A stretch of 57,395 bases of DNA, filler included, from Jimgerdemannia flammicorona (taxonomy: Eukaryota), in the NCBI GenBank assembly GCA_003990765.1. It is 2 parts of 2 records of this genome, joined end to end, with 100 filler letters (N's around TTAATTAATTAA, not from the genome) between each part and the next. Parts side by side here need not be neighbours in the genome. Positions count along the whole stretch, not along the records: positions 1 to 28,653 come from RBNJ01000546.1; 1 more part is not named here. One strand, given 5' to 3'. Shown here piece after piece: positions 1 through 47,760 of this stretch; positions within the stretch are counted from its first letter, which is position 1; each line of letters starts with the position of its first letter. Below the pieces are notes generated by a model that made no database searches, had not been told where the DNA came from, and worked only from the letters and a program-made list of their open reading frames with translations. The position numbers and the translations under genes were made by a program.

Positions 1-24
1 TTAAAAAAAAAAAAAAAAAAAAAA
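1..24 (+). repeat. poly(A) tail of a retroposon inserted into the hAT transposase (body outside the window)
   Basis: tt followed by a run of ~22 A directly abuts transposase coding sequence; the ...TTAAAA ending matches the 1.2-kb retroposons at 31460 and 44390. Confidence 0.55.
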
Positions 25-1105
25 GCCAATAGATTCAATGATGACTGCTGACAAGGAAATATGGGCCGAGGCTCTAGGTGAAAGTGAGTGGGACATACTT
101 AGGAATGTTGTCAGAGTTTTGGAAGTAAGTAGTGGTTGCTTTGGCTCCACACTTGTATTGTCTGCCTCCATACAATGCAACACCTCACCACATATAACTG
201 CCAGTATTTCAATGATTGTACGAAGGATATAGTCAAACAAATGACTCCAACAATAAGCTCTGTGATACCAGTATATATCCTTCTGATTGACTGGCTAGAG
301 GATAAGCTCGAGGACAGGCTGGAGGGTTGCAGTGGTTTACGATTAAGCCTGGATCAGAGAGACACCATGGAGGTTGCTCTAAGCAAGCTCAGAAAGTACT
401 ACTCCCAAACAGATACCACTGTATACTCAATCAGTACAGGTATATCAATGTCGGCATGTGGCCATTGCCCCTTCCAAAATAGAGGAAACCTCACAAAAAC
501 TCACTCTCCTTTTCTTTGAACAGTGCTGGACCCATGCTTAAAGCTACAATACCATAAAGATCAGGGCTGGGAGCAGCACTTCATTGAGAGAACCAAGTAG
601 GCCATAATTGAAGTATACCAGAAAAACTATGTACTGCTGCAAGGTTCTGGCTGAAGTTCAGATGAATATGCCGAGGGATCCCTCCTATCCCACATTTACT
701 TCAGCAGAAAGAGGAAGAGGGAGCTGTCAGTAGAAGAGCTGCCATCAATAGACGAACTTACCATTTACCTCGCCAGTGACTGCATGGTCCTGCTGGAGGG
801 CGCAGAGGTGCTCAACTGGTGGAAGGTGGGTTGTCAGGTGGGTATTGTCAGGTGGGCATTAGGCCAATTTAACCCACCAATCTAACCACTACTCTACCCA
901 CTGGGGTGTGCAGCTGTGTCAAATGGACTTCCCCAATCTGTGTGGTATAGCTCGGGACTACCTGGCGATTCCTGCCTCCAGTGCTCCCATCGAGCGGGTG
1001 TTCTCAGGTAGGGTGGACCTCATTGCCTCAAAGAGGTGTGTACTGAATGCTGAGACAATCCAGGTGTGTATGTGTCTGAAGTCTTGGTGGGGCTCAGGCC
1101 ACTAA
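25..1105 (+). pseudogene. hAT-superfamily transposase, C-terminal part, with 2 introns
   Basis: Removing GT-AG introns 440-523 and 826-913 gives ...KLRKYY...ST|VLDPCLKLQY...WWK|LCQMDFPNLCGIARDYLAIPASSAPIERVFS...LNAETIQVCMCLKSW, the hAT C-terminal dimerisation domain; in-frame stops in the middle exon. Confidence 0.9.
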
Positions 1106-1214
1106 AATTCGACAGGTCCATAGATAAGTTGGTTGACCTTGTGGAATATTTAATACCTTTCAAATTAATACCTTTCAAAATAATAAAAAAGGAAAAAAAA
1201 ACCTGAGGACTTGG

Positions 1215-1800
1215 CCCGGAGTTTGCAGCCCAAGTGGGGCGGGGTTGGCAGCAGCAGCAGAGGGAGCATACAATATTTGTAGCCCTCAGCCAGCAGCAAG
1301 GGGCAGCCCCAAGCTGCCAGTGCCTGGGTCAGTGGGTGGGTTGGTGGGCGGGTTGGTGGGCAGGTCAGTGGGTCAGCGGAGGGAGTGCACAAAATTTGCG
1401 ACCCTCTACCGGCAGCAAGGGGCAGCCCCAAGCCACAAGTGTCCAGGTCAGGGGGGTAGGTGGAGGGAGCATGCAAAATTTGCAGCCCTCTGCCAGCAGC
1501 GAGGGGCAGCCCCAAGCTATCAGCACCTGGGTCAGTGTGTGGGGTTAGTTGGCGGGTTGGCGGGTGTGGGGTCAGCGGAGGGAGCACACAAAATTTGCGG
1601 CCCTCCACCAGTAGCAAGGGGCAGCCCTAAGCAGCAAGTGTCTGAGATAGGCAGGGCAGGTGGAGGGAGCATGCAAAATTTGCGGCCCTCCACCAGTGGC
1701 ATAGGGGTAGCCCAAGCTGCCAAGAAGTCTGGGGCAGAGGGTGCTTCTGGCAGTCAAAGGGTGCTTCTGGCAGTCGGAGGGCATTTCTGGTAGTCGAAGT
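1215..1800 (+). repeat. ~100-125-bp tandem array (5 copies) downstream of the hAT transposase, probably subterminal repeats
   Basis: Core GGAGGGAGCAYRCAAAATTTGCRGCCCTC..CCAGCAGCAAGGGGCAGCCCCAAGC recurs at ~1260, 1378, 1462, 1578 and 1662, followed by 3 copies of GGGTGCTTCTGGCAGTC. Confidence 0.85.
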
Positions 1801-1802
1801 CA

Positions 1803-1834
1803 CCAGTTTGGGTCCCATGGGCACCCCAGCCCTG
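1803..1834 (-). mobile_element. candidate right TIR of the hAT element
   Basis: Reverse complement reads CAGGGCTGGGGTGCCC..., fitting the hAT YARNG terminal consensus, right after the repeat array; the partner TIR is not in the window. Confidence 0.4.
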
Positions 1835-2027
1835 TGCCGCAGTGCTGTACCAGCGGCACTACAGAGCAGACCCAAGGGGCCAGTAGGATTCTGCATAACG
1901 GCTAAGCTAGTGCTACATAAGAGGTGTCCAGCCCAACCCCCCCTACATAAGACTGCCCAACCCACACAAAATAGCTACCTAACCCTCACGAAAGATTGCC
2001 TAACCCTTATGAAAGATTGCTTAACTC

Positions 2028-3460
2028 TCACAAAAACTGCTCCACCTGCTGGTCCCAGATCTTGATGAGCCTATCATCTGTTGTAAGTGTGACGACTATT
2101 ATATCTGAGCTCTCCTCGAAGGCAACGGTACTATGGTGGTCATGTGGTTGAAATAGGATGACCATGTTGGCTGTAAACGGGACCCCAAAACCATAGGTGA
2201 GGTCATACCAGACTCTGTCGCTATCCTCCCAGGTTGGGCCCTTTCTTTCTGGAATATAAAACATTACCAGGGTGACATTGTTGTCTGTGTGTATGGGCAG
2301 AGAAAGGTTGTGCCTGACGTATCCTGATGTGACATGAGTGTATGGTTGGGTGAACCCTTGGCCCAGGACTTCATACTGCCAGGCTGTACTGGTGGATGTC
2401 TGCCCTTAGTCCAGCCCCAGGAGCCCCGGCTTGGAAACCTGCTGAAACGAACAGCAACTAGTCAGTCCTTTTTGCATGTGGGGGGGCAGAAACCCCCCGG
2501 GCTGCAGTACCCTGAAAAAGCAGAGCTCCTTACCTCATATGGCACACTAAATTGTGCCAAAAATATATGTACAGCCATGCCAAGATCACTACCAAGCTGG
2601 CCTGCTATATGCTCTACCAATCTACTCAAAGAACCCCAGATCATAGCCACTATTGCCGCACAGGCCATGTCATGCTTGTGCACAGTTTGCTCTTCGATGG
2701 CACTTCTAAAGTTCTGGTAGGGGTACAGAATCTTATGCATCCCTGGAATTGTATCAAAAAGAGTATGTCAGCGAAGAGTGTGATTTTTCTGAGGAGGGGT
2801 TAAAAAAAAAGGGAGATGAGTGCAGGAGATTTCAGAACTCCGGAACCCACCCTTCACCAGTGTTGCAGTATACCCAATTCCCGTCCAAACCCCCCCTCCT
2901 TGCTTTTTTTGCCCCCTCTTTTCTGCCACCCAGTATTTGACACAATCCTTACAAATCTCATTGATGTGGCAGTGAAGCTCATCACCATAGAGATTTCTTA
3001 CCACCATCACAACCACCTCTCCGTGTTTGTTAATAAAGATATGGTTCTCTTCATCGTTGGTTACTCCTGCTGGCCAATAGACCCCTTGGTTGAGTATAAT
3101 TGGCTCTGATTCGAATGTAGACCCCCAAGCCTTGATGACGATGCTGGTACTGCTTATACTGAACATCTTGCCCTTGAATTTCTCTATTTGATCAGATGCC
3201 AGACATGGTTGAACTCAGGTAACTTTGAACTCTCCTTTCCAATGGAACTGAGCCCTGATCTGAGGGACCGAGATAAGTATGCAGATGGGTTGTGTGCAGA
3301 CAGATTGTATGTGAGTGGGTTGTGTGTGGGCAGGTTGTATGCGAGCAGGTTGTGGGTAGGTTGCATATAGGTGGGTTGTGTGTGGGCAGGTTGCATGCAG
3401 GTGGGTTGTGTGCAGGTGGGTTGCATGCAGATGTGGGTGTTTTTTAGGGGAGACCATGTA
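2028..3460 (-). pseudogene. TET/JBP-like Fe(II)-dependent dioxygenase (spliced; nonsense mutations)
   Basis: Introns 2743-2850 (GTGGGT..ctgac..CAG) and 2439-2533 (GTAAGG..ctgac..CAG) join three ORF-track fragments in frame: ...IFINKHGEVVVMVVRNL...EKRG...VWTGIGY...HNLSLPIHTDNNVTLVMFY...FGVPFTANMVILFQPHDHHSTV... HxD at 2283-2291, distal H(ST) at 2127-2135, 52 residues apart; stops TAA 2406-2408 and TGA 3215-3217. Confidence 0.7.
3285..3435 (-). repeat. 15-bp tandem repeat encoding Q-P-x-[R/H/C]-x pentapeptides in the N-terminal part of the dioxygenase gene
   Basis: QPTCT QPTCM QPAHT QPTYM ... QPARI QPAHT QPTHI; one frameshift inside the array. Confidence 0.7.
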
Positions 3461-3589
3461 AAAATGAAATTAAATAAAACACAGAGATGGGTATTTCAGA
3501 AAAAGAACATGAGTGAGTGAGTGAGTGAGCTGCATGCTGATAAGTTGCACACCAACAAGTTGCACGAGTTGCACAAGATTGCTCATGAA

Positions 3590-4100
3590 GGCTTGCTTCT
3601 GTTCCTTTTGAGACCTCCACCACGCAATGCATTGACTCAATAGCTCAGCCACCAAAAGTATGCCCCACAACATCTATCAGCCTTTCTTCATCTTGACCAG
3701 ATATTGCGAATAAAGTCAGCAGATCTTGCCATAGAGCTGTGGACCCTAAGAAAAGCATGAGGTGAATTGGGTCATGCTGGGGAAGTTTAAATAAACACAA
3801 GTAAACAAGTGGTGGCTGAGTGAGCAACCTACATCTACTATTGGCTGCTCCAAAAAGGCTGCCATATATATATAGCTATGAGGTCTGTAAATTCTGAGGT
3901 CTGAAGGACCACCATGAGTTGTTGCCGGAATTCTCCCTCATCCCCGCCATCACCATCACCATCGCCACTGCCACTGCCATCACCCCTTTGGCTCTCGATG
4001 AGCAGCTTGTGTACTGTCTATATGAGAAAGAATCTAACATTGTCAGCAGAGAGTACATTTCCATCTCAAATACTCCCTCTTTTGACAATCATTGCAGGGT
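3590..4100 (-). pseudogene. possible upstream exons of the dioxygenase gene
   Basis: Minus-strand protein-like stretches (GDGSGSGDGDGDGGDEGEF; STALWQDLLTLFAISGQDEERLIDVVG); exon boundaries not resolved. Confidence 0.3.
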
Positions 4101-4319
4101 GAAAAATGAGTAGACTAGACCAATGTACAAATTAAGGGCTGCTGTTTTGTTTGCTCATGATGCAGCAGGAAAGAACAAAGAAAAAGAATAAAGAAAAAGA
4201 ACAAAGAAAAGAACAAAAGAAGAGAGGGAGCAAAAGGAAAGAGTGATGTCACCAAAGTATAACAGGAAAAAAAAACAAGAGCAAAATGAACAAAAGAAAG
4301 AGTGATATCACCAAAGATT

Positions 4320-4539
4320 TTAATCTGGATGGATCAATCTGGATGGACCAATCCAGATGGACCAATCTGGATGGACCAATCTGGATCAATCCAGATGGAT
4401 CAATCTGGATGGATTAATTCGGATCAATCTGGATCAATCCGGATCAGATCACAAGACCAATCTGAGTTGATTCGAATCTATCACATGATGAATCTGAATC
4501 AAATCTCATCTGGATCAACTCCATCCATTTGGAGTACTA
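4320..4539 (-). mobile_element. terminus of a DNA transposon: GGAT/ATCY subterminal repeats plus candidate TIR TAGTACTCCAAATGGAT
   Basis: Many tandem AATCTGGAT(GGAT)C units ending in ...ATCCATTTGGAGTACTA; this end interrupts the 3' UTR of the adjacent LINE. Confidence 0.55.
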
Positions 4540-7500
4540 ATCTCACCCCCTAACTGATCCCCCTAGGGGCCCCCCCCCCCCCCCTACCCCTTCCTGATGA
4601 AAGACCACTTTGTCCAACACAATCCCCACCCTCTCACCACTCTGCTCACAGATCCTAGCCACCAAACTGCAATGCTGTCCCCCCTGAGGACCCCAACCAA
4701 CCCACCATCCAGTCAGCAGATTCCCCAACAGCTCCTCCCACCTTAACACCTTCTCCTACAGCTCCATCTACCATCCCTCCTCAAATACAAAGAGTCAATG
4801 ACCTGCCAGTCCCACTTACACTACTAATACCCACTCTACTGTGAGCCAACTATCACCCACCCCACCCACTAGCTGAGATTTCAAGTCCTCCCAGTAGCCC
4901 TCCACACCTGCTGGCCTTTGCTCCACACCCAGTCTATTCTCTATTACTACCCAAAAGTCCCCCAATACCTCACACTCTCCCAGCCAGTGTTCTGACATCT
5001 GCACCAGACCCCCAGCTTGCCCTACATTGTAACACTCCTCACAATCACAATGGCCACCATCCACCAGATACCCAGTGCAGAAATTCAACATGATATTTCT
5101 CTGCAATATTTACTACCATACCACCCAGAATTTGGAAGGAAGCCACCTCCACACCTCAGCACTTTACGACCAGATATCTGCCCAGTCCCACTCCTCACCA
5201 ATTCCTGCCACCTGCCAGCCACTTGGCCAAAGATCTTGGCCAAGACCCTGCTGACACTCCACTCTATCCCCAATATCAAATGTAGTAAATGGAGTACCCC
5301 CCAGGAGCAGTCTATCCCATTGCTATATATCAGGCCCCCACATCACCTCCCCCTCATTGCCTCGCCAGTGCAGGCCAATTCAGTGTGCTCCAACTACCAC
5401 TCCTCACTAAAAGCCCTTGAACCGCAGCTGCCAATTTCCATTCAGCCCTAACAAAGAGAGCAGATCTCTGGAGGACCCTCAAGGGGAGGTTCTCATCTCC
5501 CACACCTTCTGCAGCAGAGGCACCCAACTCCTGCCCTGCAGTTCAGCAGCTCTTTTCAACCACCAGACTCGCAAACAGTGTAGCCTCTTAGAGAAATCCA
5601 CAAGACCAAGACCTCCCCTGATCACTGGTATTGCAAGAGTATCCCAACTGACCTGGGACCTCCTCCCTGCCCAAATCCAATCCCTAGCCACCTTCGTTAG
5701 CCTCTTCACCACCCACACTGGAAAGTCAAGGTGATAGGCCACATACCACAGCTTGGGGAACCAATATACATTCAGAATTGATACCTGCCCTGCTGGAGAG
5801 ATATGGCAGCCTTCCCAACCTTGAAGGGCCTCCCCCCAAATGGTCACTCTGCTCTCCCACCACACTCATGGTAAGACAGAACCATATGTATATGGAAAGA
5901 AAGATGCCCAGATACCACACCACCTCACCAGTAGGGACAATTGTTCCAATGACATCCCCATTCCCTAGCACCATTGTCTCACACTTATACCAGTTGAGCT
6001 TCACCCCAGAGTGAGCCTCATACCATTCCACTGTCTCCTTAAGTGCCTCTACATCTGCCATAGACCCAAGTCCAACCACCATGTCATCAGCAAAGGCCCC
6101 CACCTTCCACACTATACTATATATAGAGATCCCTGCCACCTTCCAGCAAATCCTATCCATCAAAGGTTCTAGTGAAAGGGCATAGAGAATAGGGGACAAA
6201 GGGTCCCCCTGAGGAACTCCTCTTCCTAAGGAAAATGCCAGACTATAGTGTCTATTACACATCAGTGCCACCTGACTGCTCTCAAGTAGATTCAACATAG
6301 AGGCCCAAAATCTTGGGGGAACACCAATTCAGTCTATCACCTTGTCCAGCCAAACCTGCCATACTTGGTCATAGGCCTTCTCCTGGTCCAAAAAAACCAA
6401 CCTTCCATCCAGTCCACAGGCCTGGGCCCCTTCAATGATACCATGTACCCATGCAGTCTCATCTCTTATAAGTCTGCCCCCAACAAAGCCCTGCTGCTCC
6501 TCCCCCACCACCTGTTGGGTAACTTTCTGCAGTCTTGCGACAATCACCTTAGTCACCATCTTCCTGTCCATATCCAGAAGTATGATTGGTCTCCAGTTCT
6601 TTTAGTCTTCCCTCTTCCCCTTATCCTTGTACAATAAGGCCACCAGCCTGAGGTCCTGCTCTCCAACCCACTCACTACTCTGAAGAACATAGTCACAGAG
6701 GGCAGTCATCTCATCCAAAACTCTGGGGACCTTTACCATCTTCTTCCAGAAGTCCCATGACAATCCATCATCCCCTGGTGCCATTCCAAGTTTAGTTGCT
6801 ACAAGGACACTCTGGATCTCCTCTCCTTGCACTGGTAAGATCAAGTCACCCAGGCCAGCTACTTGCAGCGGCCTCCACTCCTCTAGTGTATCTGCAATCA
6901 CCACCTCATCAGCACCCCCTTCTCTCTCACTCCACAAACCCTGCCATCTCTCCTTCAAAACTCCTAAGATTTGTTGAGTGCCATGCACCATGTCCCCATC
7001 AGCATCCAGGACCCCATTCCACTGATGTCACACTCTCCTAGCTTTGAGGAGTCTTGATAAGTATCTAGTAGGCCACTCACCCTCCTCAAGCCCCTGCCAC
7101 CATAGCCTAGTAGCCATACCTTGCATATGAGTCTCCTCCTCATCTCTCAACACCTGTTGTAGTTCCACTATCTCCAATTTCACCCTCTCTATCCTCCAGT
7201 CCTCCACCCTATCAGAAGTGAGCAAATCTGCCCAATCCATTTGCAGTCTCCTCAACCTGCTTGAAGTATACCCCATGCGCCTCCTTCTCCATCTCCCAGC
7301 CTCTCTACCAGCCCCTCCCCAATAGACCCTTGCAGCCTCTTTCAGTCTCACCCAATGGACATCCACAGACAAACCCTCATGCCTCCAGATAGAAAACTTT
7401 GCCTGAATGACCTCTACCCATGATTCCCACAACCTCTTCTCAGCCAGCAGGGAGGAGTTAAGGTGCCAATATCTGGGTCCATCTCCACTCCCCCCAAACT

Positions 7501-10333
7501 GCCCCTGCCCCAATAGTCTCCAGTGATCAGACCATAGGCACCACTCCACCTCCAATGCCTTCCAAACATCTGAACCTCAGTACTCTGCTGTCAGAATCCA
7601 GTCAATTCTCGTACCCAAACCATTCACTCAATGTGTGTAGATCCTGGTGTCACCCCACCATATTCTACCCATATCCCCCAAGGAGCTCAACATCTCCACC
7701 TCCTCCCATATATCCAGACCTCCACTTCTCCCCCCTGCACTCCTCCCTCCATCAGTTCTGTCCAGATACTAATCTCGAACCATATTAAAGTCCCCACTGA
7801 GAACATCAACCCCTTCCTCCAAGAGAACACCCTCCTCCAGCAGCTCCCTAATCCACACAGTCCTCTCACCCCTAGCTGTGGGGCAGTAGCAAGAGCCCAC
7901 CTTCACTGATTCCCACCCTGGCCAATGTCAATCTCCCCAGACCAAGCAATCACCCCAGCTCCTGATTCCCTCCAAGTCTCCCCTACTCTTCCTCACCAGA
8001 ATCACCACTTTTCCAAACCAAGCAGTAGCCCCACTCCATTCCCTAGTCCACTCTACCCAGTTGTCCTCATCCTCACACTGAACATCCTGTAGTAAAAAAA
8101 GATCAGCCTCTAATCCCTTGAGCTAAGTAAAAATATTCTTATGCTACCCAGAGCCCCTTAACTCATTCACATTCAAAGAGAAAATGTTGGTTATACTGTT
8201 TATAGGAATTAATGATATATTGTAATTCCATCTTCTATAAGTCCACATTCAGCTCCTCCTGCACCAAGTCCAAATCATGTTCAGCAGCTAGTTCCCTTTC
8301 TCCAGCTTCCCATGCCTCCAACTCTCCCAAAAGTTCTACCATTGCCCCATCTTCTTGCTCCTCAAAGTCCTCATGATACTCCAGACAGGCCTCCTGCCAT
8401 AGCTGCAAACCATGATGCTCTGCCTAACAGTAGGCCACCCGCTCATCAGTGACTACCTCCAGCTCTACCTTCCTCACCTCGTCAACCTCATATTCCTCCT
8501 TCTTCAGGAAGAGTGCAAGAATCTCCACCTTCAGTGCCCCCATCACTCCATTGCCATGTAGAATCTGTGCCCAATACTCCTCAGGCATTACCCACAGGTC
8601 CACTTCTCCCAATGCCTCTGCTGCGATGTTATCCATTACCTTGCTCATCCACAACAAGTTCCCCACCTCCTTCCCTCCTGGAGTCCCTGGCTGCCCTGCA
8701 TCCAACATCGTAGTATCAGCTCCAACACTGGCAGCCTTATCCCACTCCTCCTCAGGGATATCCACTAGCTCATCCTTGCCAACCACCACCACCTGGCCCC
8801 CTTTCATCATATCAGGGACCCCAAAGTGCACTCACTGGGCCCCCTGCATCAGTACATTCTCTGTTGTCCCTCTCTTCCCAGCCAGGCCCCTCCTGATAAG
8901 TGGGGGGGTGGCATCCAACTCCTACTCTCAAACTTTGAAGGTACCATCAGTATACAGGTCCTTGTCCAGTATCTTCTCAGCCCCTGCCTTATTCGCCTCC
9001 ACCTCCTCTCCCCCTTTGCTAGCCCAGACACTGGCCTTGACACCCCCAGACTCCTCAGCTCCAACCAACTTCTTCTTCACCCCTTCTGTCATACTCGCCA
9101 ACAGCTCCCTCTGCCTCTTGCATCCCTGGGCCCACTCTCACTGCTTCCTGTCAGTATGGATACACTTCCCATCCACAACCTCTAGATGTATCGACTCCTC
9201 ATATAGCTTCCAGGCTTTTACCCTCCTCTCCACAGCACTACTCAGCTCCTCCAGCACCTCCAACAAGTCCTCCTCTGCCTCTTCACTCCCTTTCATCCTT
9301 GACACCTTACAGATGAAAGCCCCCCACATCAGCACCGAGGGCCAGTCACTTGCCTTCCCAGTGGCCTCCTTCCCTGCCAGCCAAATCCTGACATCAACAT
9401 CACCCATCCTGAATGTTGTCTCCTCCCACATCTGAAAGCCAATGTCCACCACATCACCATACTCTATTATCACCTCCTCCACCCTCCTCTTAGTCTCCTC
9501 CTTAGTCACCATGGGCACCCCCTTCACCAGAAGCTATACCACCCTGGGGTCCCACCTCAAGCACCTTACTATGGGAACTACCACTTCCCCAACTACTACT
9601 TCAGTCTTCAGTGCCTCATCCAGTAGGCCCACCTCCTCAAAGCCCACCTCAACTCCCTCCAGACCCTTCAAGAACTTCACTGAGGCCACCCCAGCCACCT
9701 GCTTTGAAATAAGCCCCAGGACCATCCTTGCCGTCACTGCCAAGCCCTGAAAGTACAAGATAGCCATGAACTCTGAGATTGACTTCTTGAGCAATGGGGC
9801 CACCGCCAGTCCCATTACACCATCCACCAGGTCCCTCTTCCACATCGAGAACCCCTGCCCCCCCTGGCCATCAGCTGTCACATCTCTTTTTTTTTCCTGA
9901 TTTGCCGTCATGCTACCATCAGCAGTCCCACCACTACCCCCAGCAGCTACTCCACTTACTCCACCCCCTACCAGTGAAGGCCCTGCTCCCCCAGCATCCC
10001 CAGCCTTCTGCTTCCCCTTCCCTCCTGCCTGTCCACTGTGGGCTCCCATCGGCCAACTCCAGTCCTTAGCATGTCCACAAAGCTCCTTCCCTGCTACCCT
10101 CCAGCCCCCCCACCAGTGCCACCTCTACTGCCCAAGCTGTCCCATCCACTTGAGCCACTGAAAGACCCCATCTCCAGCCCATACCCTCTCCTGACATACT
10201 GCCAGTCAAAGGCCCCAGGTCTGCCTGACCTAGTACATGTGTTGGCTTGTTTGCTGGTTGACATTGCCTTAATATCTTTCTCCAATAAACGAGTTGTAAA
10301 AGTGTGTGTAACATGAATTGTAGTAGAGAAAGG
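4540..10333 (-). mobile_element. L1/Tx1-type LINE, copy A (ORF1 + EN-RT ORF2), decayed, with the last ~60 nt and poly(A) missing
   Basis: ORF1 ~10264-8235; ORF2 motifs SLNVN, GDFN, RIDWIL, WSDH (AP endonuclease), FLDQEKAYD, GVPQGDPLSPILY, AFADD (RT), EHWLGEC (Zn finger); collinear with copy B. Confidence 0.93.
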
Positions 10334-15197: not shown

Positions 15198-18100
15198 ACC
15201 TTTCACCAGTAACATTCAGATGACACAAGACTCAGGCAATACTTTTGACAACATTTTTGGGGAAAGGTGACTAGCAACATAGAAAGCAATGAACATACAG
15301 GTGAACATACTAGGTCGGGTGGACCTAGGGCCTTTGATTGGCAGCAGGTGGGGAGGGGTTATGGCCTGGGGATGGGGGCCTTCAGAGGGCCAAAGAGTGG
15401 AGAAGGCTCTGGAGAGAGACCAGTATCTAGTAGTAATGGGGGAAGATCTGATCTCCTGAGCTTCGCAGACAAGGTTAAGGGGAGTGGGTGGCTGGCTGGT
15501 ACTAGGGCTGGTGTTACTGAGGGGAAGGGCAAGGCAAGCCTTGGGAGGGGGGGTGGTGCTCCAGCTGAGAGTATAGGTATAGGGGCTGGAGGTGCTGTGG
15601 CTGAGAGTGTAACTGTTGATGGGAGTATGACAGGAAATCAGGAAAAAAAAGGAGATATGATGGCTGATGGCCAGGTGGGGCAGGGGTTCCCAATGTGGAA
15701 GGGGAATCTGGCAGATGGTGTAATGGGGCTGGTGGTGACCCCATTGCTCAAGAAGTCGATCTCAGAGTTCGTGGTGACCTTGTGCTTCCAGGGCTTAGCA
15801 GTGATGGCAAGGATGGTTCTGGGGCTTGTTTCAAAGCAGGTGGCTGGAGTGGCCTCAGTGAAGTTCTTAAAGGGTCTGGAGGGGGTCGAGGTGGGCTTTG
15901 AGGAGGCAGGCCCACTGGATGAGGCACTGAAGACTGAAGTCATGGTTGGGGAGGTGGTGGTCCCCATGGTGCAGTGCTTGTGATGGAACCCCAGGGTGGT
16001 GCAGCTTCTAGTGAAGGGGGTGCTCATGGTGACTAAGGAGGAGACTAGGAAGAGGGTGGAGGAGATGATGATTGAGTATGGTGATGTGGTGGACATTGGC
16101 TTTCAGGTGTGGGAGGGGACAATGATCAGGACAGGTGACATTGATATCAGGATTCGGCTGGCAGGCAAGGAGGCCATAGAGAAGGCAAGTGACTGGCCTT
16201 CTGTACTGATGTGGGGGATGTTCATCTGTAAGGTATCAAGGGTGAAGGGGAGTGAGGAGGAGGAGGAGGACTTGTTGGAGGCACTGAAGAAGATGAGTGG
16301 AGCTGTGGAGAGAAGGGCAAGAGCCTAGAAGATATATGAGGAGTCGACACATCTGGAGGTTGTGGATGAGAAATGCATCCATACTGACAGAAAGCAGTAG
16401 GAGTGGGCACAGGGGCACAGGAGGCAGAGAGAGCTACTTGTGAGTATGAAAGTAGAGGCAAAGCAGAAGGTAGTGAGAGCTGAAGGGTCTGGGGGTGTCG
16501 AAGCCAGTGTTTGGGTGAGTAAAGGGGTTGGGGAGGTGGAGGCAGGCAAGGAAGGGGCTGAAAAGATACTGAGCAAGAACTCCTATACTGATGGCACTTT
16601 CAAGGTCTGGAAGCCAGAGCTGGATACAACCCCCCCCCCTCTTATCAGGAGGGGCCCAGCTGGAAAGAGACAGACAACAGAGGATGTACCGATGAAGGGG
16701 GCCCAGCAAGTGCACTTTGGGGTCCCTGATGTGAAAAAAGGAAGTCAGGTGGTAGCAGTTGGCGAGGATGAGCTGGAGGATGTCTCTGAGGAGGAGTGGG
16801 ATGAGACTGCCAGTGTAGGGGCTGATACCACAATGTTGAACATAGGACGGCTGGGGACTCTGGGAGGGAAGGAGGTGGGGAACTTGCTGTGGATGAGCAA
16901 GGTGATGGATAACCTCTTGGCTGAGACTTTGGGAGAAGTGGACCTGTGGGTAATGCCTGAGGAGCATTGGGCACAGATTTGCATAGCAAGAGAGTGGTGG
17001 AGGCACTGAAGGGGGAGATTCTTTCGATTTTCCTGGAGGAGGAGGGATATTAGGTCGATGAGGTGAGGAGGGCCAAGCTGGCAGTGGTTGCTGGTGAGCA
17101 GGTGGCATACTGTTAGGCAGAGTGGCATGGTTTGTGGTTCTGGCAGGAGGCCTGTCAGGAATATTATGAGGACTTTGAGGAGCAAGAAGATGGAGCAATG
17201 GTGGAACTTCTGGGAGAGTTGGAGGCACAGGAAGCTGGTGAAAGGGAACTAGCTACTGATCATGACTTGGATTTGTTGCAGGAGGAGCGAGATGTGGAAT
17301 TGTAGAGGGTGGGTTCATGATACAATTTTTTTTTTTCTCTTATAAACAGTACAGCCAACATTTTCTCTTTGAATGTAAATGGGCTAAGGGGATCTGAGCA
17401 GCATAAGAATATTTTTAATTGGCTCAAGAGATTGGAGGCCAATCTCTTTTTACTGCAGGATGTTTGGTGTGAGGATGAGGACAATTGGGTTGATTAGACT
17501 AGGGAATGGGGTAGAGCTACTGCTTGGTTTGGAAAAGTGGTGATTCTGGTGAGAAAGGGTAGAGGAGACTTGGGGGGTATTGGGAGCTGGGGTGATCGCT
17601 TGGTCTGGTGAGATTGACATCAACCAGGGTGGGAGATAGTGAGGGTTGGCTCTTGCTACTACTCTGTGGTTAGGGGGGAGAGGATTGTATGGATTAAGGA
17701 GCTGCTGGAGGAGGGTATTCTCTTGGCAGAAGGGGTTGATGTGCTTGGGGGGGACTTTAATATAGTTTGGGATCAGTATCTGGACCGAACTGATGGTGGG
17801 AGGAGTTCAGGAGGGAGAAGTGGAGGCCTGGATACATGGGAGGAGGTGGAGAGGCTGAGCTCCTTAGGAGATATGGGCAGAACATGATGGGACAACTCCA
17901 GGGTCTACATGCATTGGGTGAATGGCTTAGGTACAAGGATTGACTGGATTCTGACAGCAGAATGCTGGGGGTCAGATGTCTGGAAGGTATTAGAGGTGGA
18001 ATGGCACCCATGGTCTGATCACTGGAGACTGTTGGGACAGGGGCAGTTTGAGGGGAGTGGAGATGGACCCAGACATTGGCACCTTAACTCCTCCCTGCTG

Positions 18101-21095
18101 GCTGAGAAGGGGTTGTGGGATTCATGGGTAGAGGACATTCAGGCAAAAGTTTCTTACTGGAGGTGTGAGGGTTTGTCAGTGGGTGTCCATTGGATGAGAT
18201 TGAAAGAGGCTATAAGGATCTATTGGGGAGGGGCTGGGAGAGAAGCTGAGAGATGGAGGAGGAAGTGCATGAGGTGTGCTTCCAATAGGCTGAGGAGATT
18301 GCAAATGGATTGGGCAGGTTGGCTTACTTCTGATGTGGTGGAGGATTGGAGGTTAGCATGGAATAAATTGGAGATAATGAAACTGCAACAGGTGTTGAGA
18401 GAAGAGGAGGAGGTGCATATGTGAGGTATGGCTGCTAGGCTAAGGTGGCAGGGGCTTGAGGAGAGTGAGCAGCCTACTAGATATTTATCCCATCTGCTCA
18501 AAGCTAGGAGGGTGAGACATCAGTAGGATGGAGTCCTAGATGCCGATGGAGATATGGTATATGGCATGCAATAAATCTTAGAGATTTTGAAAGAGAGATG
18601 GTAGGGTTTGTGGAGTGAGGAAGAAGGGGGTGCTGATGAGACAGCTATTGAAGATACATTAGGGGAATGGAGGCCACTACATATGGCTAGACTGGATTAC
18701 TTGGCCTTGCTGGTGTGAGGTGAGGAGGTCCAGAGTATCCTTGTGGCAACCAAAACTAGAATAGCACCAGGGGAGGATTGACTGCCATGGGACTTCTGGT
18801 AGAATATGGTTAAGATCTCCAGCATTTTGGGTGAGATGACTGCTCTCTGTGATCATGTTCTTCAGAGTGGTGAGTGGGTTAGAGAGCAGGACCTCAGGCT
18901 GGTAGCTTTATTGTACAAAGACAAGTAGAGGAGAGAAGACTGGAAGAACTGGCAACCAATCATGCTTTTGGATATAGACAGAAAGATGGTGACTAAGGTA
19001 GTTGTTGCAAGGCTGCAGAAGGTTGCCCAACAGGTGCTAGGGGAGGAGCAGCAGGGCTTTTTTAGAGGTAGACTTATAAGAGATGGGACTGTATGGGTGC
19101 ATGGTGTCATTGAAGGGGCCTGGGCTTGTGGCCTGGATGGAAGGTTGGTCTTCTTGAACCAGGAGAAGGCCTATGACTGGGTCCGGTGGGTTTGGCTGGG
19201 CAAGGTATTGGATCATATTAGTATTTCTCCAGGATTTTGGGCTTCTATGTTGAGTCTGCTAAAGGGCAGTCAGGTGGTGCTAATGTGTAATGGTCACCAT
19301 GGTCTGGCATTTACCTTGAGAAGAGGGGTTCCTCAGGGAGACCCCCTGTCCCCTATTCTTTATGCCCTCTCATTGGAACTATTGATGGATAGGATTTGCC
19401 AGAAGGTGGTAGGACTCTCTATCTATGGCATAGTGTGGAAGGTGGGAGCCTTTGCAGATGATATGGTGGTTGGCCTTAGGTCTGTGGCAGATGTCGAGGC
19501 ACTTAAGGAGATTGTGGAATAGTATGAGGATCACTTTTGGGCAAAGCTCAACTGGCATAAGTGTGAGACTATGATGCTAGAGAATGGGCTGGTGGGTGGG
19601 GACATCATTGGAACAATTGTCCCTACTGGTGAGGTGATATGGTATCTGGGCATCTTTCTCTCTATATATGGCTCTGTCTTGCCACGAGTGTGGTGGGAGA
19701 GCAGGGTGACTGTTTGGGGGGAGGCCCTTCGAGGTTGGGGAGGCTGCCATATCTCTCTAGTAGGGCAGGTATCAATTCTGAATATATACTGGTTCCCTAA
19801 GCTAAGGTATGTGGCCTATCACCTAGACTTTCCAGCTTGGGTGGTGAAGAGGCTGACAAAGGTAGCTAGAGATAGGATTTGGGTAGGGAGGAGGTCCCAG
19901 ATCAGTTGGGATACTCTAGCGACACTGGTGGTCCAGGGAGGTCTTAGCCTTGTGGATTTCTCTAAGAGGTTACACTGCTTGCAAGTCTGGTGGTTGAAGA
20001 GAGTGGCTGAACTGCAAGGAGGGGGTTGGGTGCCTCTGCTGCAGAAGGTGTGGGAGATGAGAACCTCCCCCCAAGGGTCCTCAGGAGATCTACTCTCTTT
20101 GGTAGGGCTCAATGGAATTCAGAGGCTGTGGTTTAAGGGCTTTTGGTGGGGAGTGGTCGATGGAGCATACAGAATTGGTCTGTACTGGCAAGGCAATGAG
20201 GGAGAGGTAATGTGAGGACCTAGTATGTGGCGATGGGATAGACTGCTACTGGGAGGTGCTCCACTTGCTGCTTTTGATATTGGAGATGGAGTGGAGTGTC
20301 AGCAGGGTCTTGGCCAGGATCTTTAGCTGAGCAGTTGGCAGGCAGTCAGGATTGGTGAGAAGTGAGACTGGGCAGGTATCTGGTCTTGGAGTGCTGAGAT
20401 ATGGCTGTGGCTTCCCCCCAAGTTCTGGGTGGTGTAGTGGCAAATACTGTAGAGGAATATCATGCTGAATTTCTACACCAGGCATCTGGTGGATGGTGGC
20501 TGTTTTGATTGTGAGGAGTGTTACAATGTAGGACAAGCTGGGGGTTTGGTGCAGACACCAGAACATTGGCTGGGAGAGTGTGAGGTTTTGGGGAACTTTT
20601 GAGTTGAAATAGGGAATAGACTGGGTATGGAGCACAGGCCGGTAGGTGAGGGGGATCACTGAGAGGACTTGAGATCTCAGCTAGTGGGGGGGGTAGGTGA
20701 TAGTTGGCTCACTGTTGGGTGGGTGTTAGCAGTTTGGGTGGGATTAGTGGGACATTGGCTATTTGTATTTGAGGAGGGGTGGCAGATGAGACTGCAGAAG
20801 AAGGTTTTAAGGTGGGAGGAGCTGTTGGGGGATCTGATGACTGGATGGTAGATAGGTTGGAGTCCTTCAGGAGGGTAATGGTGAGGTTTGGTGGTGAGGA
20901 TATGCAAACAGAGTGGTGGGAGGGTGGGGATTGTTTTTGATAGAGTGGTGTTTCATTGAGAAGGGGTAGGGGAGAGGGGCCCCCCTAGGGGGATTGGATA
21001 GGGGGAGGGTTCACTGTACTTATATGGGATAGAGGGGTGTAATAAAGGAAGAGTCCAAGTGACTATAAAAAACAAAAAAAAAAAAAAAAAAAAAA
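15198..21095 (+). mobile_element. L1/Tx1-type LINE, copy B, full length with poly(A) and TSD
   Basis: ORF1 ~15267-17305; ORF2 ~17320-21000 with EN and RT motifs (GVPQGDPLSP, FADD); AATAAA then poly(A) 21067-21095; TSD tcccatgcccttttc (15183-15197) / tccaatacccttttc (21096-21110). Confidence 0.95.
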
Positions 21096-23497
21096 TCCAA
21101 TACCCTTTTCTACCTAAAGCCACTGATACAGCCCTGGAGAAACTGCTACACCAGCCCCACCATCAGACTGACCTAGTGCATGGTCTCTAACCATATTAAA
21201 ATCACCCCCCAAAATGTCTAACCCTAGAGCTGCCTAATCCTCCCAAGCCAGCCACTCCTCCACTCATTGCTTTCACTCTCTGCCAACTGCTGGCAGATAC
21301 ATAGAGCCCACCAAGAGTCTATCTCCTTTTCCTCCCTTCAGTCTACCCCACACCAGTCAATCACCAAACCTTTCCACATCCACTAACTCCCCCTTTCCAA
21401 CCCCAACCAGAATACTAACTTGCTTACTCCAACCAGTATCTCTGAACTATTCCTTACTCTACAATTTATATTCCTCCTCACCATAGGCCCAAATATCTTG
21501 AAGAAACACTACATCATACCCCCAGACTTTCAACCATTGAAATAGACACTGCTGCTTCATACTATCTCGCAAACCATTGATGTTGATTGACAGAATTTGT
21601 AGGTTATACTTCATTACAGAAAATTTGGAGTTTAGATATCAGCTGCCACTGCTGCCATCTTCTCAGCTTGGCTCTTAATAATGTCTCGATGCTTCTCACA
21701 GACTGCTCACCAAATCCTCTCGCCATTGTTACTGCCATAGAAGAGGTCTACTTGCTTGGATGCCACCTTATAAATATCTGTCATTTGGTCATCATCCATC
21801 TCATACCCTTCATCCTCCAGAAGGGCTGTGATCATTGCAGTCACCAGCTTCAATCCCTGTAATGCCACCTTGAGAAATTCTTCCCATGCCTCCAGGGAGC
21901 CCTGAAATACATCTACTTCCTTAATGTCATCTGCTGCCAGTTCCTCCAGAACTGCCTGGAACCAGCCATCTGCCACCATCGCCAATGGCCCTGGCGTCAC
22001 AGGCCTAGGAGTCCTGCAGAGCTTCTGAAACAATTCCCTGTCCACAAATATATTCAAAGCAACATCTACCAGCTCATCCTCTTCAGAGACCTTATCTAAT
22101 CTCACCACCTCCCCTGCTTCTGGATATTCCCAGTGCACATTCACTGACCTAGCCATCACTGTGTCTTCCATCTGAGTTTCTGGAACCACCTCAACATTTT
22201 CTTCAAAGCCCACTCCTCACTCTTCCTCACCATCTGCCCACTTCCCTGTCACTGGTGCATGCACAGATTCTCCCACTCCCCCCAGCTGTAAGAAGGACAC
22301 CTCAGCCACCTCTACTCCTTCCATTCAATTCCTGTCAGACACTACCCTTTCAACCTCCTCTGCAGATGCTTGCAACACTGCCTGCAGTTATTCCCAGTTT
22401 GTCTTATACCAATGCTTCCTCTTGCCATCCATCTCAATCCAGATCCAATCTTTTACAAATTTCTCCCATTTTCTTTTCTGCAAAGCCTTCACCTCATCAT
22501 ACTCCTCAAGAGCTATCAGCAGCTCCTCCTCTTCCTGCTCAGAGCCTTTCCTCCTCCAGACCCAATAGTCCTGCTCTCCAACACAAATGACCTCTGGCCA
22601 GTCTCGCCCCAGACCTGTTGCCTCCTTCCCCTCCAGCTACACCATTGTCTCACAATTGCCATTCCTCAACTTTGTGCCCTCCCAAAACATAAATCCAAAA
22701 TCCACCATCTCTCCAAAGCTTTCCAGAGCCTTGGCAATCACCATCTTAGTCTCCTGCCTGCTCAGCATTGGCAATCCTTTTACCACCAATCTCACTGCAT
22801 GTGGGTCCCATCTCAGGCATCTTGCCATCCCCACCTTAACATTCTTGACCATCAGCCCCTTCTCCAAGGCCTTCATCATAGCCTCCTCCTCCACAAATCT
22901 GACCTCCACTGCCTCTGCCAAGGGGATAAATCTCAGTGACTCAGCCCCTGCAACCTCCTCACCCACCAGCCATAGAACTTCCTTGGCTGACAGACCAAGG
23001 CCCAGGAAATTGATGGAGACTGCCCACATCAATACTGATTTATGGAAGAATGGTTGTACTACCAGCTCTCCAGTTTCTGCTGTCAGAGTTGCCTTGTTCT
23101 TGCTGCTGGACATGCCCACTACTACCTCGCCAGGAGCTACTATGCCACCAGCAGTTCTACCCCCAGCCACTGGCCCAGCCCCAGGAAAGCCAGTCCCAGT
23201 CATCACACCCCAAGACTCCTAACCCCTGCTGGGTCCCTGGCCAGTCAGCTGACCAGTCACCTGATGTCCACTCCTGTCAACACTATGCCCCTGCTGCCCC
23301 CCAACTATAGGCCTAGAGGCTGCCTACTTACTCTCCATCACTGTGTGCCAACCATCCAGTCCTGCTGTAGGTCCTTGACCTCTAGCCTGCCCTCCAGCTC
23401 AACCTTGACCAGCAGCTGCTGCAAAACTCTTGGGGAGGCCCAGGCCAGGCCTCCTCCTCTCTAGGCACTCCGAGCTTGATGAGTCTTGGGTCACCAT
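21096..23497 (-). mobile_element. 5' part of LINE copy C (ORF1 and EN N-terminus), a divergent subfamily
   Basis: ORF1 homologous to copies A/B (RCLRWDP..VRLVVKGLP, GEMVDFGF..WEGT); GGDFNMV motif; frame continues across the copy B insertion. Confidence 0.88.
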
Positions 23498-25777: not shown

Positions 25778-28653
25778 CTATAGTTCCTTCCTTTGCTGGG
25801 GGGTGAGTGTTTCCATGTAGTCCTGAAGGGCTTCATGTGCATTCTTCAGGACTTCTTCTTTTTCCCAGGTGGCATCATGGGTGGGGTAACCCTTCCACTT
25901 GATCAGAAAAAAGCGCTTGACTGTTTTGGGATATTTGCGGACCTTGTGGTCAAGTACTTCCTCAATTTCGAATTTCTCATGATCATTAATCCTAATTAGG
26001 GGTGGTGGTGGAACTATACACTCGGGGAATGGGTTTTCATAGTAGTCCACCAATTGGCTGATATGGAATACTGGGTGTACTCGGATATTGTAGGGAAGTT
26101 GTAACTTGTAGTTGACTTCACTGATTTTTTCCATGATCTTGTATGGTCCAATTCTTCTAGCACGGAGTTTCTTGGCTGGTTGTTGTGCCAGGGTATCTGG
26201 GTGGAGGTGGTCTGTTCTAAGCATGACCTTGTTATCAATATTATAGGAGGCTTCTCTTCGTTTCAAGTTCGCATACTTGGTCTGGTAGTCTTGTGCTTCT
26301 ATGAGAGCATCTCTTATCATTTGCGTAAGGTCAGAAATGGTCTCGGCCAGATCTTGGGCTGCTGGGACTGCTGATTTTGCAGTAATACTTGGGGTCCTTG
26401 GGTGTTGACCATGGTTCAGGAAGAATGGAGTCTTCTTTGTAGAGGTTTGCTGACTGTTGTTGTAGGTAAACTCAGCATAGGCTAGGTACTTGTCCCAATC
26501 ATTTTGCTTGTAACAACAGAAGATGCTAAGCATCTGTTTGAGGGTCCTGTTGGTACACTCAGTTTGACCATCAGTCTGAGGGTGGTAGGTAGTAGAGAAC
26601 TTCAGCTTGGTTCCATGGAGGGAGAAAAATGCCTTCCAGAAGTTGCTTGTGAACTTGGTATCTCAGTCAGATACAATGGTGCTAGGTATGCCATGTAGTC
26701 TGAATACTTAATTGAGAAAGATTTCAACAATCTCTGGTGCTGTAGCAGTGGTCTTGGTGGGTGCAAAATGGGCTTATTTACTTAGGCAGTCTATAAATAC
26801 CACAATGGCATCCCATCCTGCCTTGGTCTTGGGGAGTTGGACAATGAAGTCCATCACAATCTGGTCCCAATTGTGACTTGGGATAGGCAAGGGTTGCAGG
26901 AGTCCTGCTGGTAGCTTGTTACCACTTTTGAACCTTTGGTATATCTCGCATGAGGCCACAAAGTCTTTCATATCCTTAGTCATCTTTGGCCAGTAGAACT
27001 CTCTTGAGAGGAGGTTGTAGGTCTTTTCAAAACCAAAGTGTCCTGCTGCAGGAGTATCATGGAGTTCCTGCATGATTTTGAGTCGCAGAGTATCATTGTT
27101 GGGTACAACCACTCTGTCATGGTCCCTATAGATAAGTCCATCATGGTAGGTGAATCTCTTGGCCATTTGCCTTATGGGTTCTGGAATCTCGGCCTCTGGG
27201 TCTTGGTAGAACTGAAGGAAATTCATCAGTGGGCTGTCTTGCTGGTAGCTATCTTTGATCATCTGGGTAAGGTCTCCGATTACTTCAACCATGAAGACAA
27301 GTTTGTCTTCCATGTATCTGGAGAAACCATCAGCCACACGGTTGGTTTTGCCTGGAATATACTTGATTTCTATATCAAAGTTGGCAATGATTTCCATCCA
27401 ACGGGCTTGTCTGTGGGTCAGCATAGGCTGTGTGTGAATATACTGCAGTATATAGTGATCAGTGTAGGCCACAAATGGCTGTTCTAGGAGGAAATGGTGC
27501 CATTCTTGGAGTGCAGTGACAATAGCCAGGAGTTCCTTCTCATGGGTGGTATACCGGGTCTCAGCTGGCTTGAGCTTCTGTGAAAGGTAGGCCACTGGGT
27601 GGTCTTCTCGGCTGAGTACTGCTCCAATAGCAATGTCAGAGGCATCTATGATCAGAGTGAATGGTCTGATAGGATCAGGTGCAATTAGCACTGGGGCCTC
27701 AGTAAGGAGTCTCTTGAGATGGTCCATAGCCAGGGTGCATTCGGGGGTCCATTCAGCTTTGATGTTCACTCCTTTATGGGCCAGGCTAGTCAATGGGGCT
27801 GTAATAGCAGAGTATCCTTGGATAAACCTTCAGTAATAACAGGCAATATCCAGAAAGCATTGGAGTAGCTTGAGGGTAGTGGAGATAGGGATATCCTTAA
27901 GGGCTGATACTTTTTGGGGATCCATGTTGATACCTTCAGCAGAGATGATGTGTCCTAAGTACTCGATCTGGTCTTAGTAGAACTTACACTTGCTCATTTT
28001 GGCATAGAGCTGGTGTTCTCGCAGAAGAGTCAGTACTTGTCTAAGATGGGTATAGTGTAGCTCTACTGTCTTGCTGTAGATTAGTATATCATCAATATAT
28101 ACAAGGACACAGATGTTGAGGAGTGGTCCAAAGATGTCATTCATCAGATACTGGAATGTTGCTGGTGCATTGGTCAATCCAAAAGGCATGACTCGGAACT
28201 GGTAGTGTCCAAACCATGTTCGGAAAGCTGTCTTCTCAATGTCCTTCTCATCAATGAGAATCTAGTGGTAGCCATTTCACAAATCCAATAGCAAAAAGGT
28301 CTTGGCCTTGAAGATTTGGTGTAGCAACTCATCAATCCTGGGCAAGGCATACCGATTCTTGATAGTAATCTTGTTGAGGGCTCTGTAGTCAATATACATT
28401 TGCAGAGAGCCATCCTTCTTCTTGACAAATAGAATTGGGGCTCTAAATGGAGAGTGGCTGGGTTCAATGTATCCTTGGGCCAGTAGTTTGGTCAATTCAT
28501 CCTTGAGAGTCTTGAGCTTAGGTTGAGCCAGTTGATAGATACTCTTGTATGGGGGTTCAGATCCTGGGATAAGATCAATTCCATGTTGGATTTGGTGCTT
28601 GGGTGGAAGTCCTTGAGGATCTTGGAATATATCTTGGAATTCTTCAAACAGTT
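25778..28653 (-). mobile_element. Ty3/gypsy chromovirus pol (RT, RNase H, integrase, chromodomain), decayed
   Basis: [56 protein letters not shown] motif, chromodomain FEIEEVLDH...FLIKWKGYPTHDATWE. Confidence 0.95.
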
Positions 28654-28753
28654 NNNNNNNNNNNNNNNNNNNNNNNNNNNNNNNNNNNNNNNNNNNNTTA
28701 ATTAATTAANNNNNNNNNNNNNNNNNNNNNNNNNNNNNNNNNNNNNNNNNNNN
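28654..28753. other. assembly gap / contig-joining linker
   Basis: N-run flanking TTAATTAATTAA, which has stops in all six frames. Confidence 0.9.

Positions 28754-31455: not shown

Positions 31456-31491
<36 letters not shown>
30292..31491 (+). mobile_element. 1.2-kb non-autonomous poly(A) retroposon, copy 1
   Basis: AATAAA + poly(A) 31460-31491; 15-bp TSD aatagataactttta (30277-30291) / aatagataactttca (31492-31506); homologous to 44366-45553; no RT motifs seen. Confidence 0.8.
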
Positions 31492-31495
<4 letters not shown>

Positions 31496-44361: not shown

Positions 44362-44365
<4 letters not shown>

Positions 44366-44393
<28 letters not shown>

Positions 44394-47340: not shown

Positions 47341-47760
47341 GAAGTTGTACTCAATTTCATACAAGTCAACCCCAAGGCCCAGATCCCTCAAGCACAGTCA
47401 GAAGGAGCCATTGGTTTGGACCTTCAAGCAGTACAACAAGTCACTATTCTGGTACATGAGAGAAGGCTCATCCCAACTGGCCTTTCAGTTGAAATCCCCA
47501 AGGAACATTATGCAAGAATTATACCAAGATCTGGTCTCTGTTTCAAGTACTCATTGGATGTTAGTGCTGGAGTCATAGACCCTGACTTCTAAGGTGAAAT
47601 GCAAGTCCTGCTAGTCAACCACAAGAACTAGCTATATACCGTCAATGAAGGAGATAGAATTGCACAGCTCATTCTGGAGTGAGCCACCCTACCAGTTGTC
47701 AAAGAAGTCACCAAGCTGTCTTCAACCAAGCGAGATCAGAAAGGCTTTGGCAGCACTGAC
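47341..47760 (+). pseudogene. dut: trimeric dUTPase domain between Gag zinc knuckle and protease
   Basis: AIGLDL, IIPRSGL, AGVIDPDF*GE, GDRIAQLI, RDQKGFGSTD (dUTPase motifs I-V). Confidence 0.92.

Follow-up and report, generated by a model that had tools for sequence, protein, structure and literature searches.

A decayed gene for a probable TET/JBP-like dioxygenase beside a hAT transposase remnant in Jimgerdemannia flammicorona

Results and Discussion

Structure of the TET-like gene

We analyzed a stretch of 57,395 nucleotides (nt) of Jimgerdemannia flammicorona DNA (GenBank assembly GCA_003990765.1; positions 1 to 28,653 are from record RBNJ01000546.1), which we call the window and whose positions are used throughout. 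Near its left end two convergent genes lie 920 nt apart. The plus strand carries a hAT transposase gene, of which the 3' part is present, and the minus strand a gene of four exons (2028-3673, as read from the minus-strand frames), whose product is predicted to have the fold of an Fe(II)/2-oxoglutarate (2-OG) dioxygenase and is probably related to the TET/JBP enzymes. The minus-strand gene, referred to here as the TET-like gene, is the subject of this report.

The three downstream exons of the TET-like gene are joined by two canonical introns. Exon 1 (2851-3259) encodes the N-terminal strands and the GGGVWTGIGY motif, starts behind an acceptor that reads tccctcag followed by ATC at 3260/3259, and carries an in-frame TGA at 3215-3217. 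An intron in phase 1 (2743-2850, GTGGGT..CAG) separates it from the middle exon (2534-2742), which reads (G)MHKILYPYQNF...SVPYE, and an intron in phase 0 (2439-2533, GTAAGG..CAG) separates the middle exon from the last exon (2028-2438). The last exon has an in-frame TAA at 2406-2408 and encodes the HTD motif (2283-2291) and the distal His (2133-2135) before it ends in the stop codon (2028-2030). All the motifs quoted in an earlier first-pass annotation of this DNA, namely FINKHGEVVVMVVRN, RG...TGIGY, N-x5-HTD and HST, were found in the minus-strand frames, and the His codon of HST does lie 52 residues past the His of HTD, as that annotation had stated.

Three kinds of homologue were used to judge the model: P0001, which matches the last exon at 78% identity (E 1e-60); P0004, an uninterrupted open reading frame (ORF) of 374 amino acids on a 1702-nt Logan contig from a metagenome, together with P0007; and L001, a full-length locus in a soil-metagenome contig. 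The middle exon aligns to P0004 and P0007. When the three downstream exons were spliced, the product was colinear with P0004 (E 5e-34; 263 amino acids at 27% identity) and with P0007 (E 1e-28) through both junctions. Exon 1 of L001 aligns to window positions 3133-2849 (E 2e-12), and each of the two introns has a counterpart in L001 at exactly the same codon position and in the same phase. The proposal that two canonical introns unite the scattered short ORFs is thus borne out by the GT..AG borders, by the colinearity with P0004 and P0007 and by the introns of L001. Because of the colinear alignments and the recurrence of both introns in L001, we regard the spliced gene as confirmed at the level of sequence, and its reality as far beyond chance.

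The upstream end of the gene differs from the first-pass annotation, which had placed the limits at 2028 and 3460 and had read a His/Thr-rich N-terminal frame up to 3460. We rejected that frame, since it translates a tandem repeat of 15/30 nt (3277-3430) that lies within an intron (3260-3574) and has no counterpart in the homologues. A further upstream exon probably lies beyond the earlier limit, near 3575-3673, with an ATG at 3673-3671 and a helix containing ...AWWRSQKEQKQAF.... Support for this first exon is weak but concordant, in that tblastn placed residues 7-33 of P0004 (E 0.013) and exon 0 of L001 (E 0.045) at the same spot, 3646-3566. Its donor is uncertain: five in-phase GT donors are possible, which would end the upstream exon at 3575, 3566, 3557, 3551 or 3509 and yield products of 375-397 residues, compared with 374 for P0004. 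An alternative acceptor at 2400, which would bypass the TAA of the last exon, was also rejected, since the residues that it would bypass are homologous to ELPGLDE and RLPGIDGG in the relatives.

Homologues and conserved residues

The homologue search covered 1.84 billion representatives at a cut-off of E<=0.001 and returned six rows, five of which were relevant; the sixth, P0005, is an unrelated repeat protein and was set aside. A profile search with the family alignment gave no additional members. A word-index search of exon 1 against longer proteins gave no match, and another such search gave P0004 and P0007 only. Two full-length loci, L001 and L002, were found in soil-metagenome contigs; they have 34% G+C, are 99% identical to each other, and are about 23-36% identical to the window exons.

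The pair of metal-binding His residues is invariant in the aligned sequences (6/6 in alignment A3 and 7/7 in alignment A4), and the Asp of HxD is conserved throughout except in P0003, which has Asn. An Arg between HxD and GG (Arg298 in P0004 numbering) is invariant as well. By eye, an Arg at position -7 of HxD is present in 5/7 rows of alignment A4, the window and P0001 being without it.

Some of the relatives in other metagenomes are themselves decaying. In L002 (1673-2110) a stop in the last exon stands in place of the Glu-Arg of L001, the metal motif of P0003 is HxN and not HxD, and P0006 is truncated. At 90% identity, the cluster that contains P0003 has 28 members, from many contigs. Downstream of the gene in L001 (2320-2945) are two ORFs of 93 and 94 amino acids, which match no Pfam family and do not resemble the window.

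Predicted fold

A structure model of P0001 in the ESM Atlas has a predicted template modelling (TM) score of 0.59 and a mean predicted local distance difference test (pLDDT) of 0.69. Among the 10 structural neighbours shown for this model, 7 are labelled as 2OG-Fe(II) oxygenase, Tet_JBP or prolyl-4-hydroxylase, with TM-scores by query of 0.54-0.63. Language-model features gave a similar picture for two members of the family. Among named clusters, P0001 is closest to 'Tet-like 2OG-Fe(II) oxygenase', in which 72% of members carry PF20515 (score 0.91, 178/256 features), and a Tet_JBP cluster is at rank 9. For P0004, the best cluster has PF20515 on 15% of its members (score 0.96, 209/256 features), and a Tet_JBP cluster is at rank 11. 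The Atlas neighbours of these two proteins come mostly from Basidiomycota, with a single cluster from Mucoromycota. A literature search on PF20515 (2OG-FeII_Oxy_6) found no paper.

Taken with the HxD...H motif and with the likeness to published proteins described below, the Atlas fragment model and the language-model neighbours suggest a 2OG-Fe(II) dioxygenase fold for the product of the TET-like gene, a prediction that is supported, though indirectly.

Comparison with published TET/JBP proteins

Fungal TET/JBP genes are reportedly associated with Kyakuja/Dileera/Zisupton elements, an association said to have been described by Iyer and colleagues in 2014. A recent survey places TET/JBP genes within 11 lineages of DNA transposons, hAT included (Kojima 2025, Biology 2025;14:1741, PMC12730594). 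That survey describes 20 hAT families with a TET gene ('hAT7', with a 7-bp target-site duplication) in six Puccinia species, all of the PU type, and proposes an anti-silencing role for transposon-borne TET/JBP proteins. The PE type is given there for Pezizomycetes and some Agaricales, with HxE as its hallmark, and its proteins are at the margin of what HHpred detects (E 1.4 to CMD1; PMC12730594). The principle of TET-carrying transposons, and the hAT case in particular, is therefore already known, and the hAT7 families of Puccinia contradict the belief of the first-pass annotation that no coupling of hAT with TET/JBP had been described (PMC12730594).

The window family is probably closest to the PE type. 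In the PE-type rows available from the survey, what look by eye like the same blocks recur in the same order and spacing: an N-terminal strand pair, ..R.G....G(Y/H/W).., a helical insert, the metal motif, then GG.F...(D)YG......N....(W/F).P...HG(T/S)(T/S), and finally ..GLS.V... Along GG.F...DYG.......N...V..P...HGTT, L001 and one Pezizomycete row of the PE type agree at 14/33 ungapped residues, and the window core and a PE-type row agree at 9/32 ungapped residues, both counted by eye. PE-type proteins and the window family are also alike in being barely detected or not detected by sequence models and in being many-copy inside repeats, and in the rows at hand both look, by eye, to have no Arg at the two canonical 2-OG positions. 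They differ in the metal motif, which is HxD in the window family (HxN in P0003) and HxE in the PE type. Unlike the PE type, the window family has conserved introns and forms a separate small family, and hAT is absent from the carriers listed for the PE type in the available parts of the survey (PMC12730594).

The PU type of the Puccinia hAT7 elements offers a parallel of a different kind, as a hAT transposase and a TET/JBP-like gene occur there together in a repeat, as they do in the window. The window motif GGGVWTGIGY resembles, by eye, GGKMWGIGW of the PU rows in a GG..W.GIG(W/Y) block. However, the PU rows at hand keep ..TR(L/I)G.S.Q.. after the distal His and an R after GIGW, which the window family does not. 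The arrangement also differs: in the hAT7 elements whose order is given in the available parts, the TET gene is upstream of the transposase and in the same direction, whereas the TET-like gene of the window is downstream and convergent.

Among the solved TET homologues NgTET1, human TET2, CcTET and CMD1, the HxD...H triad has about 50 residues between its parts, compared with 52 in the window gene. According to a structural study, two strictly conserved arginines in TET2 and NgTET1 bind 2-OG by its C1 and C5 carboxylates, namely R224 and R289 in NgTET1 and R1261 and R1896 in TET2 (PMC7854593). CMD1 has no basic residue placed for the C5 carboxylate, cannot use 2-OG and uses vitamin C instead (PMC7854593). 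In the solved TET homologues an Asp or Asn at +5 of HxD contacts N4 of 5-methylcytosine, 5mC (PMC7854593); the window gene has its Asp/Asn at +4. The window family differs from the solved homologues further in giving no sequence match to a chain in the PDB and in that the two 2-OG arginines are not evident. The invariant Arg298 of P0004 could replace the canonical 2-OG arginine in its role, and CMD1 is a precedent for a TET homologue with another co-substrate (PMC7854593).

Several results count against the assignment to TET/JBP. With Pfam, the window exons, P0001-P0004, P0007 and the L001 exons gave no match at E values up to 1 or 10; as a yardstick, gp2 of phage Cooper scores 26.6 bits on Tet_JBP, itself below the cut-off of 34.9. 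Sequence searches of the PDB found nothing, either for exon 1 or, with E values as high as 10 allowed, for the family profile. The hhalign comparison of alignment A3 with A5, a phage Tet_JBP alignment built from phage Cooper gp2 and its relatives, set HxD on HRD and His on His, but its score of 18.6 (E 0.13-0.14) was matched by 8/60 column shuffles and is not significant. The AlphaFold2 models were unusable (pLDDT 36.8 for P0004 with 6 sequences and 34.2 for P0001 with 7 sequences). Atlas neighbours at equal TM-score include prolyl hydroxylases and other 2OG oxygenases. In alignment A4, by eye, the 17 or so residues past the distal His include no conserved basic residue, and the G(Y/W) motif is not followed by an Arg. 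None of 6 short motifs specific to the family is at a homologous place in the available part of Table S1 of the Kojima survey. Of twelve short family motifs sought in the supplement, GIGY, AGYT, HTDNN, THVD, KGMH, HGST, FYNM and GYTV are absent; YGFG and FYNL occur once each, in PU rows at other places, and HGTT and HGTS occur 2 and 10 times, in PE rows.

These results bear on a rival explanation, in which the product belongs to some other group of 2OG-Fe(II) oxygenases, for example a prolyl-hydroxylase-like one, has no action on DNA bases and is like TET in fold only. The Atlas neighbours annotated as prolyl 4-hydroxylase, HIF prolyl hydroxylase, 2OG-FeII_Oxy_3 and Oxy_5 (TM-score 0.54-0.63) are no worse than the cluster that bears Tet_JBP, which fits such an enzyme, as do the lack of a match to any TET/JBP model and the canonical 2-OG arginines that are not evident. 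On the other hand, two independent members have Tet-like (PF20515) and Tet_JBP clusters as their named neighbours by language model, and the order and spacing of the motifs seen by eye are those of the available PE and PU rows, including the N-terminal GIG(Y/W) block, which is outside the common core. Fungal TET/JBP genes are, moreover, typically many-copy inside repeats. We consider an oxygenase of this other kind distinctly unlikely. In kind, the earlier TET/JBP-like reading broadly holds up, and its HxD...H core stands. Neither Pfam nor hhalign gave a significant match to a TET/JBP sequence model. A kinship with TET/JBP, closest to the PE type, is probable, short of demonstrated membership in TET/JBP.

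Copy number in soil metagenomes

The sequencing runs that share words with the window are four soil-metagenome runs only, with shares of 0.06-0.11; no RNA run is among those listed. In run X1, 1471 short contigs fall on window positions 1-4700, of which 195 are at least 99% identical to the window, 402 are 95-99%, 578 are 90-95% and 296 are less than 90% identical. Depth over 1-4700 is present in 30/30 bins of this run. The runs X2-X4, from two further studies, have 27-59 contigs each on the same stretch. By these counts the whole 1-4700 stretch is many-copy in the soil metagenome, with copies that are 80-100% alike. Within the window itself, tblastn and blastn searches for a second copy of the gene or its flanks gave only the gene itself, the LINE end described below and poly-A.

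A further reading would make the TET-like gene a single-copy host gene, or no gene at all but a chance frame of short ORFs, its C-terminal DDRLIKIWD being a remnant of a WD40 protein. The last exon does match Tako8, a designed WD40-like propeller, in the PDB (E 7e-9), and WDR5 at about E 0.1. The Tako8 score, however, adds up eight repeats of a single 35-residue match whose individual E values are about 77, and the WD40-like stretch is not conserved in L001, P0004 or P0007. The homologues with their colinearity, the conserved introns of L001 and the 1471 contigs of X1 exclude chance and single copy, so we take this reading as refuted, with next to no probability left to it, and the WD40 match as an artefact inflated by repeats. 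A single-copy syntenic host gene, which the first-pass annotation had held up as the contrary case, is not what lies here.

Decay of the window copy

The TET-like gene has two in-frame stops, TAA 2406-2408 and TGA 3215-3217, and not a single one as reported before. Homologues show E or G where the window gene has the TAA. At position 3217, contigs of all four runs have G (all depth in X2-X4, and 24/118 in X1). This G gives CGA on the coding strand, and the TGA is therefore a C-to-T change at a CpG. With these stops the window copy is a pseudogene, unable to make the protein. The hAT remnant has in-frame stops as well, TAG 598-600 and TGA 652-654. At position 598 the window has T, compared with C in 234/244 depth units of X1, so that the TAG derives from CAG.

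Changes of this kind are found over the whole region. The observed/expected ratio of CpG in 1-4700 is 0.23, next to 0.24 for the window as a whole, in which TG and CA are in excess and TA is not. Among the kinds of difference between the window and the X1 contigs, 531/556 are transitions; sites with A/T in the window and G/C in the contigs (320) exceed the reverse (211). At the 33 best-supported sites with A/T in the window, the inferred original dinucleotide was CG at 14, CA at 11, CC at 6 and CT at 2. The heavy C-to-T decay of the repeats that had been noticed earlier is confirmed by the transitions, the low CpG ratio and the sites in CG context. The pattern is characteristic of a repeat family in which methylated CpG is lost by deamination, and not of the classical, CpA-directed repeat-induced point mutation (RIP). 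The soil organism with these many copies is most likely a fungus whose repeats are methylated at CpG.

Transposon context

The hAT gene that adjoins the TET-like gene is a 3' part in several exons on the plus strand (26-1105), whose left side is cut by the start of the window. Its dimerization domain is at about 920-1087, and the query 863-1105 matches Dimer_Tnp_hAT with an E value of 2.2e-13 (50.2 bits, compared with a cut-off of 21.4). The match is real and the two genes are convergent, so the tail-to-tail arrangement with a hAT transposase described before is upheld. Between the genes are a tandem repeat at 1260-1781, with a period of about 199 nt and 2.6 copies, and, after it, a 21-nt repeat at 1941-2040. 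The copy number of the 199-nt repeat varies, as metagenome contigs skip 109-122 nt or 327 nt of it. Upstream of the TET-like gene, at 4322-4446, are short direct and inverted repeats (GGATCAATCTGGATGGA-like), which resemble the subterminal repeats of DNA transposons and may have such a function.

Farther upstream, the 3' part of a minus-strand long interspersed nuclear element (LINE) meets this region in a junction at 4512-4546. Window positions 4546-4698 are 77% identical to 21005-20855, in a second copy of the LINE that ends in poly-A at 21066-21096, and the X1 and X4 contigs that follow the LINE consensus depart from the window at 4540. At the junction, the last ~50 nt of the LINE and its poly-A tail are missing, as expected from an insertion into the LINE. 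The transposon-like terminus at 4539 of the first-pass annotation is thus a true junction, where LINE homology stops at about 4512-4546, and is at most a candidate for the end of a hAT element.

Carriage of the TET-like gene as cargo of the adjoining hAT element stands, in our estimate, at about even odds. Three observations speak against it. No terminal inverted repeat or target-site duplication was found around the gene and the hAT part, the left end of the element being outside the window; among the contig pieces listed, none bridges 1100-2030, between the two genes; and no hAT sequence is present within 750 nt upstream or 1700 nt downstream of the gene in L001 and L002, which are on short contigs.

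The alternative is that the TET-like gene is part of a different mobile unit or was amplified on its own, and that the hAT element merely adjoins it and ends within 1106-2027. The window is a graveyard of transposons, with LINE reverse transcriptases and two Ty3/gypsy chromoviruses, one LINE abuts at about 4512-4546, the variable tandem repeat stands between the two genes, and the relatives L001 and L002 have no hAT nearby, all of which would be in keeping with a separate unit. Nevertheless, the interval from 1105 to 4512 showed neither a second transposase nor another terminus. One and the same run has many copies of both the hAT part and the gene, and every bin between the two has depth, although depth cannot rank the parts. 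Elements of the hAT group with TET cargo do exist (PMC12730594). We hold a separate unit to be possible, if somewhat unlikely, and retain hAT as the first-candidate carrier.

Interpretation

We favor, at a probability of roughly 0.55, the following explanation of the locus as a whole: a pseudogenised, four-exon gene for a PE-like HxD protein with a dioxygenase fold, for which hAT is the first-candidate carrier, which would have served as an anti-silencing enzyme, and which decayed at CpG. The gene would belong to a small, unannotated family of proteins with the Fe(II)/2-oxoglutarate dioxygenase fold, most like the fungal PE type and with HxD in place of HxE. A DNA transposon, perhaps the hAT element, would have taken the gene along as cargo. 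The enzyme made from intact copies may oxidize, or otherwise modify, 5mC on the DNA of the element itself, and this modification would lift the silencing that is based on methylation and slow the decay of 5mC to T. The window copy would have been silenced all the same, and would then have decayed by CpG transitions.

Transposons with a DNA-demethylating enzyme of their own are a direct counter to a genome defence based on methylation. The locus described here shows the outcome when the defence wins, with stops that arose from C-to-T transitions, one of them at a CpG. It adds a family that sequence models do not recognize and that departs from the published types in its metal motif and, by eye, at the positions that bind 2-OG. 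Intact members of the family, if active, would broaden the known chemistry and host range of such enzymes. What may be new, then, is a PE-like HxD family that is invisible to models and has conserved introns, possibly with a hAT carrier and possibly in another group of hosts.

A more far-reaching proposal is that the family represents a fourth type of transposon-borne TET/JBP-like gene, with a PE-like scaffold, HxD, introns and no canonical 2-OG arginines, carried by hAT in a CpG-methylating soil fungus. We regard this combination as speculative and rather unlikely. If it were true, a co-substrate other than 2-OG, as in CMD1, or a product other than 5-hydroxymethylcytosine might follow, and the host might be beyond the three fungal lineages known for transposons with TET genes.

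Other features of the window

A 24-nt poly-A lies directly before the hAT coding sequence, at 1-25, and may be the tail of a retroelement inserted in the transposase gene. Similar poly-A runs are at 21074-21102, 31458-31498 and 44365-44393.

The LINE is present in two diverged copies, at 4546-10100 on the minus strand and at about 16000-21096 on the plus strand, with RVT_1 domains at 5729-6328 (minus) and 18929-19519 (plus). Its coding strand is very rich in G and poor in C, with a GC skew, in 2-kb windows, of -0.34 to -0.48 in one copy and +0.38 to +0.49 in the other, an asymmetry far above that of the neighbouring repeats. No host gene was recognized among the 28 large ORFs of the window that were scanned. 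Two remnants of Ty3/gypsy chromoviruses, at 25781-29732 (minus) and 46759-50943 (plus), have RNase H, integrase zinc-binding, Tf2-1 SH3 and chromo domains, and the second also has gag and protease. Blocks of 25-35% G+C are found at about 10-14 kb, 30-32 kb and 34-42 kb of the window.

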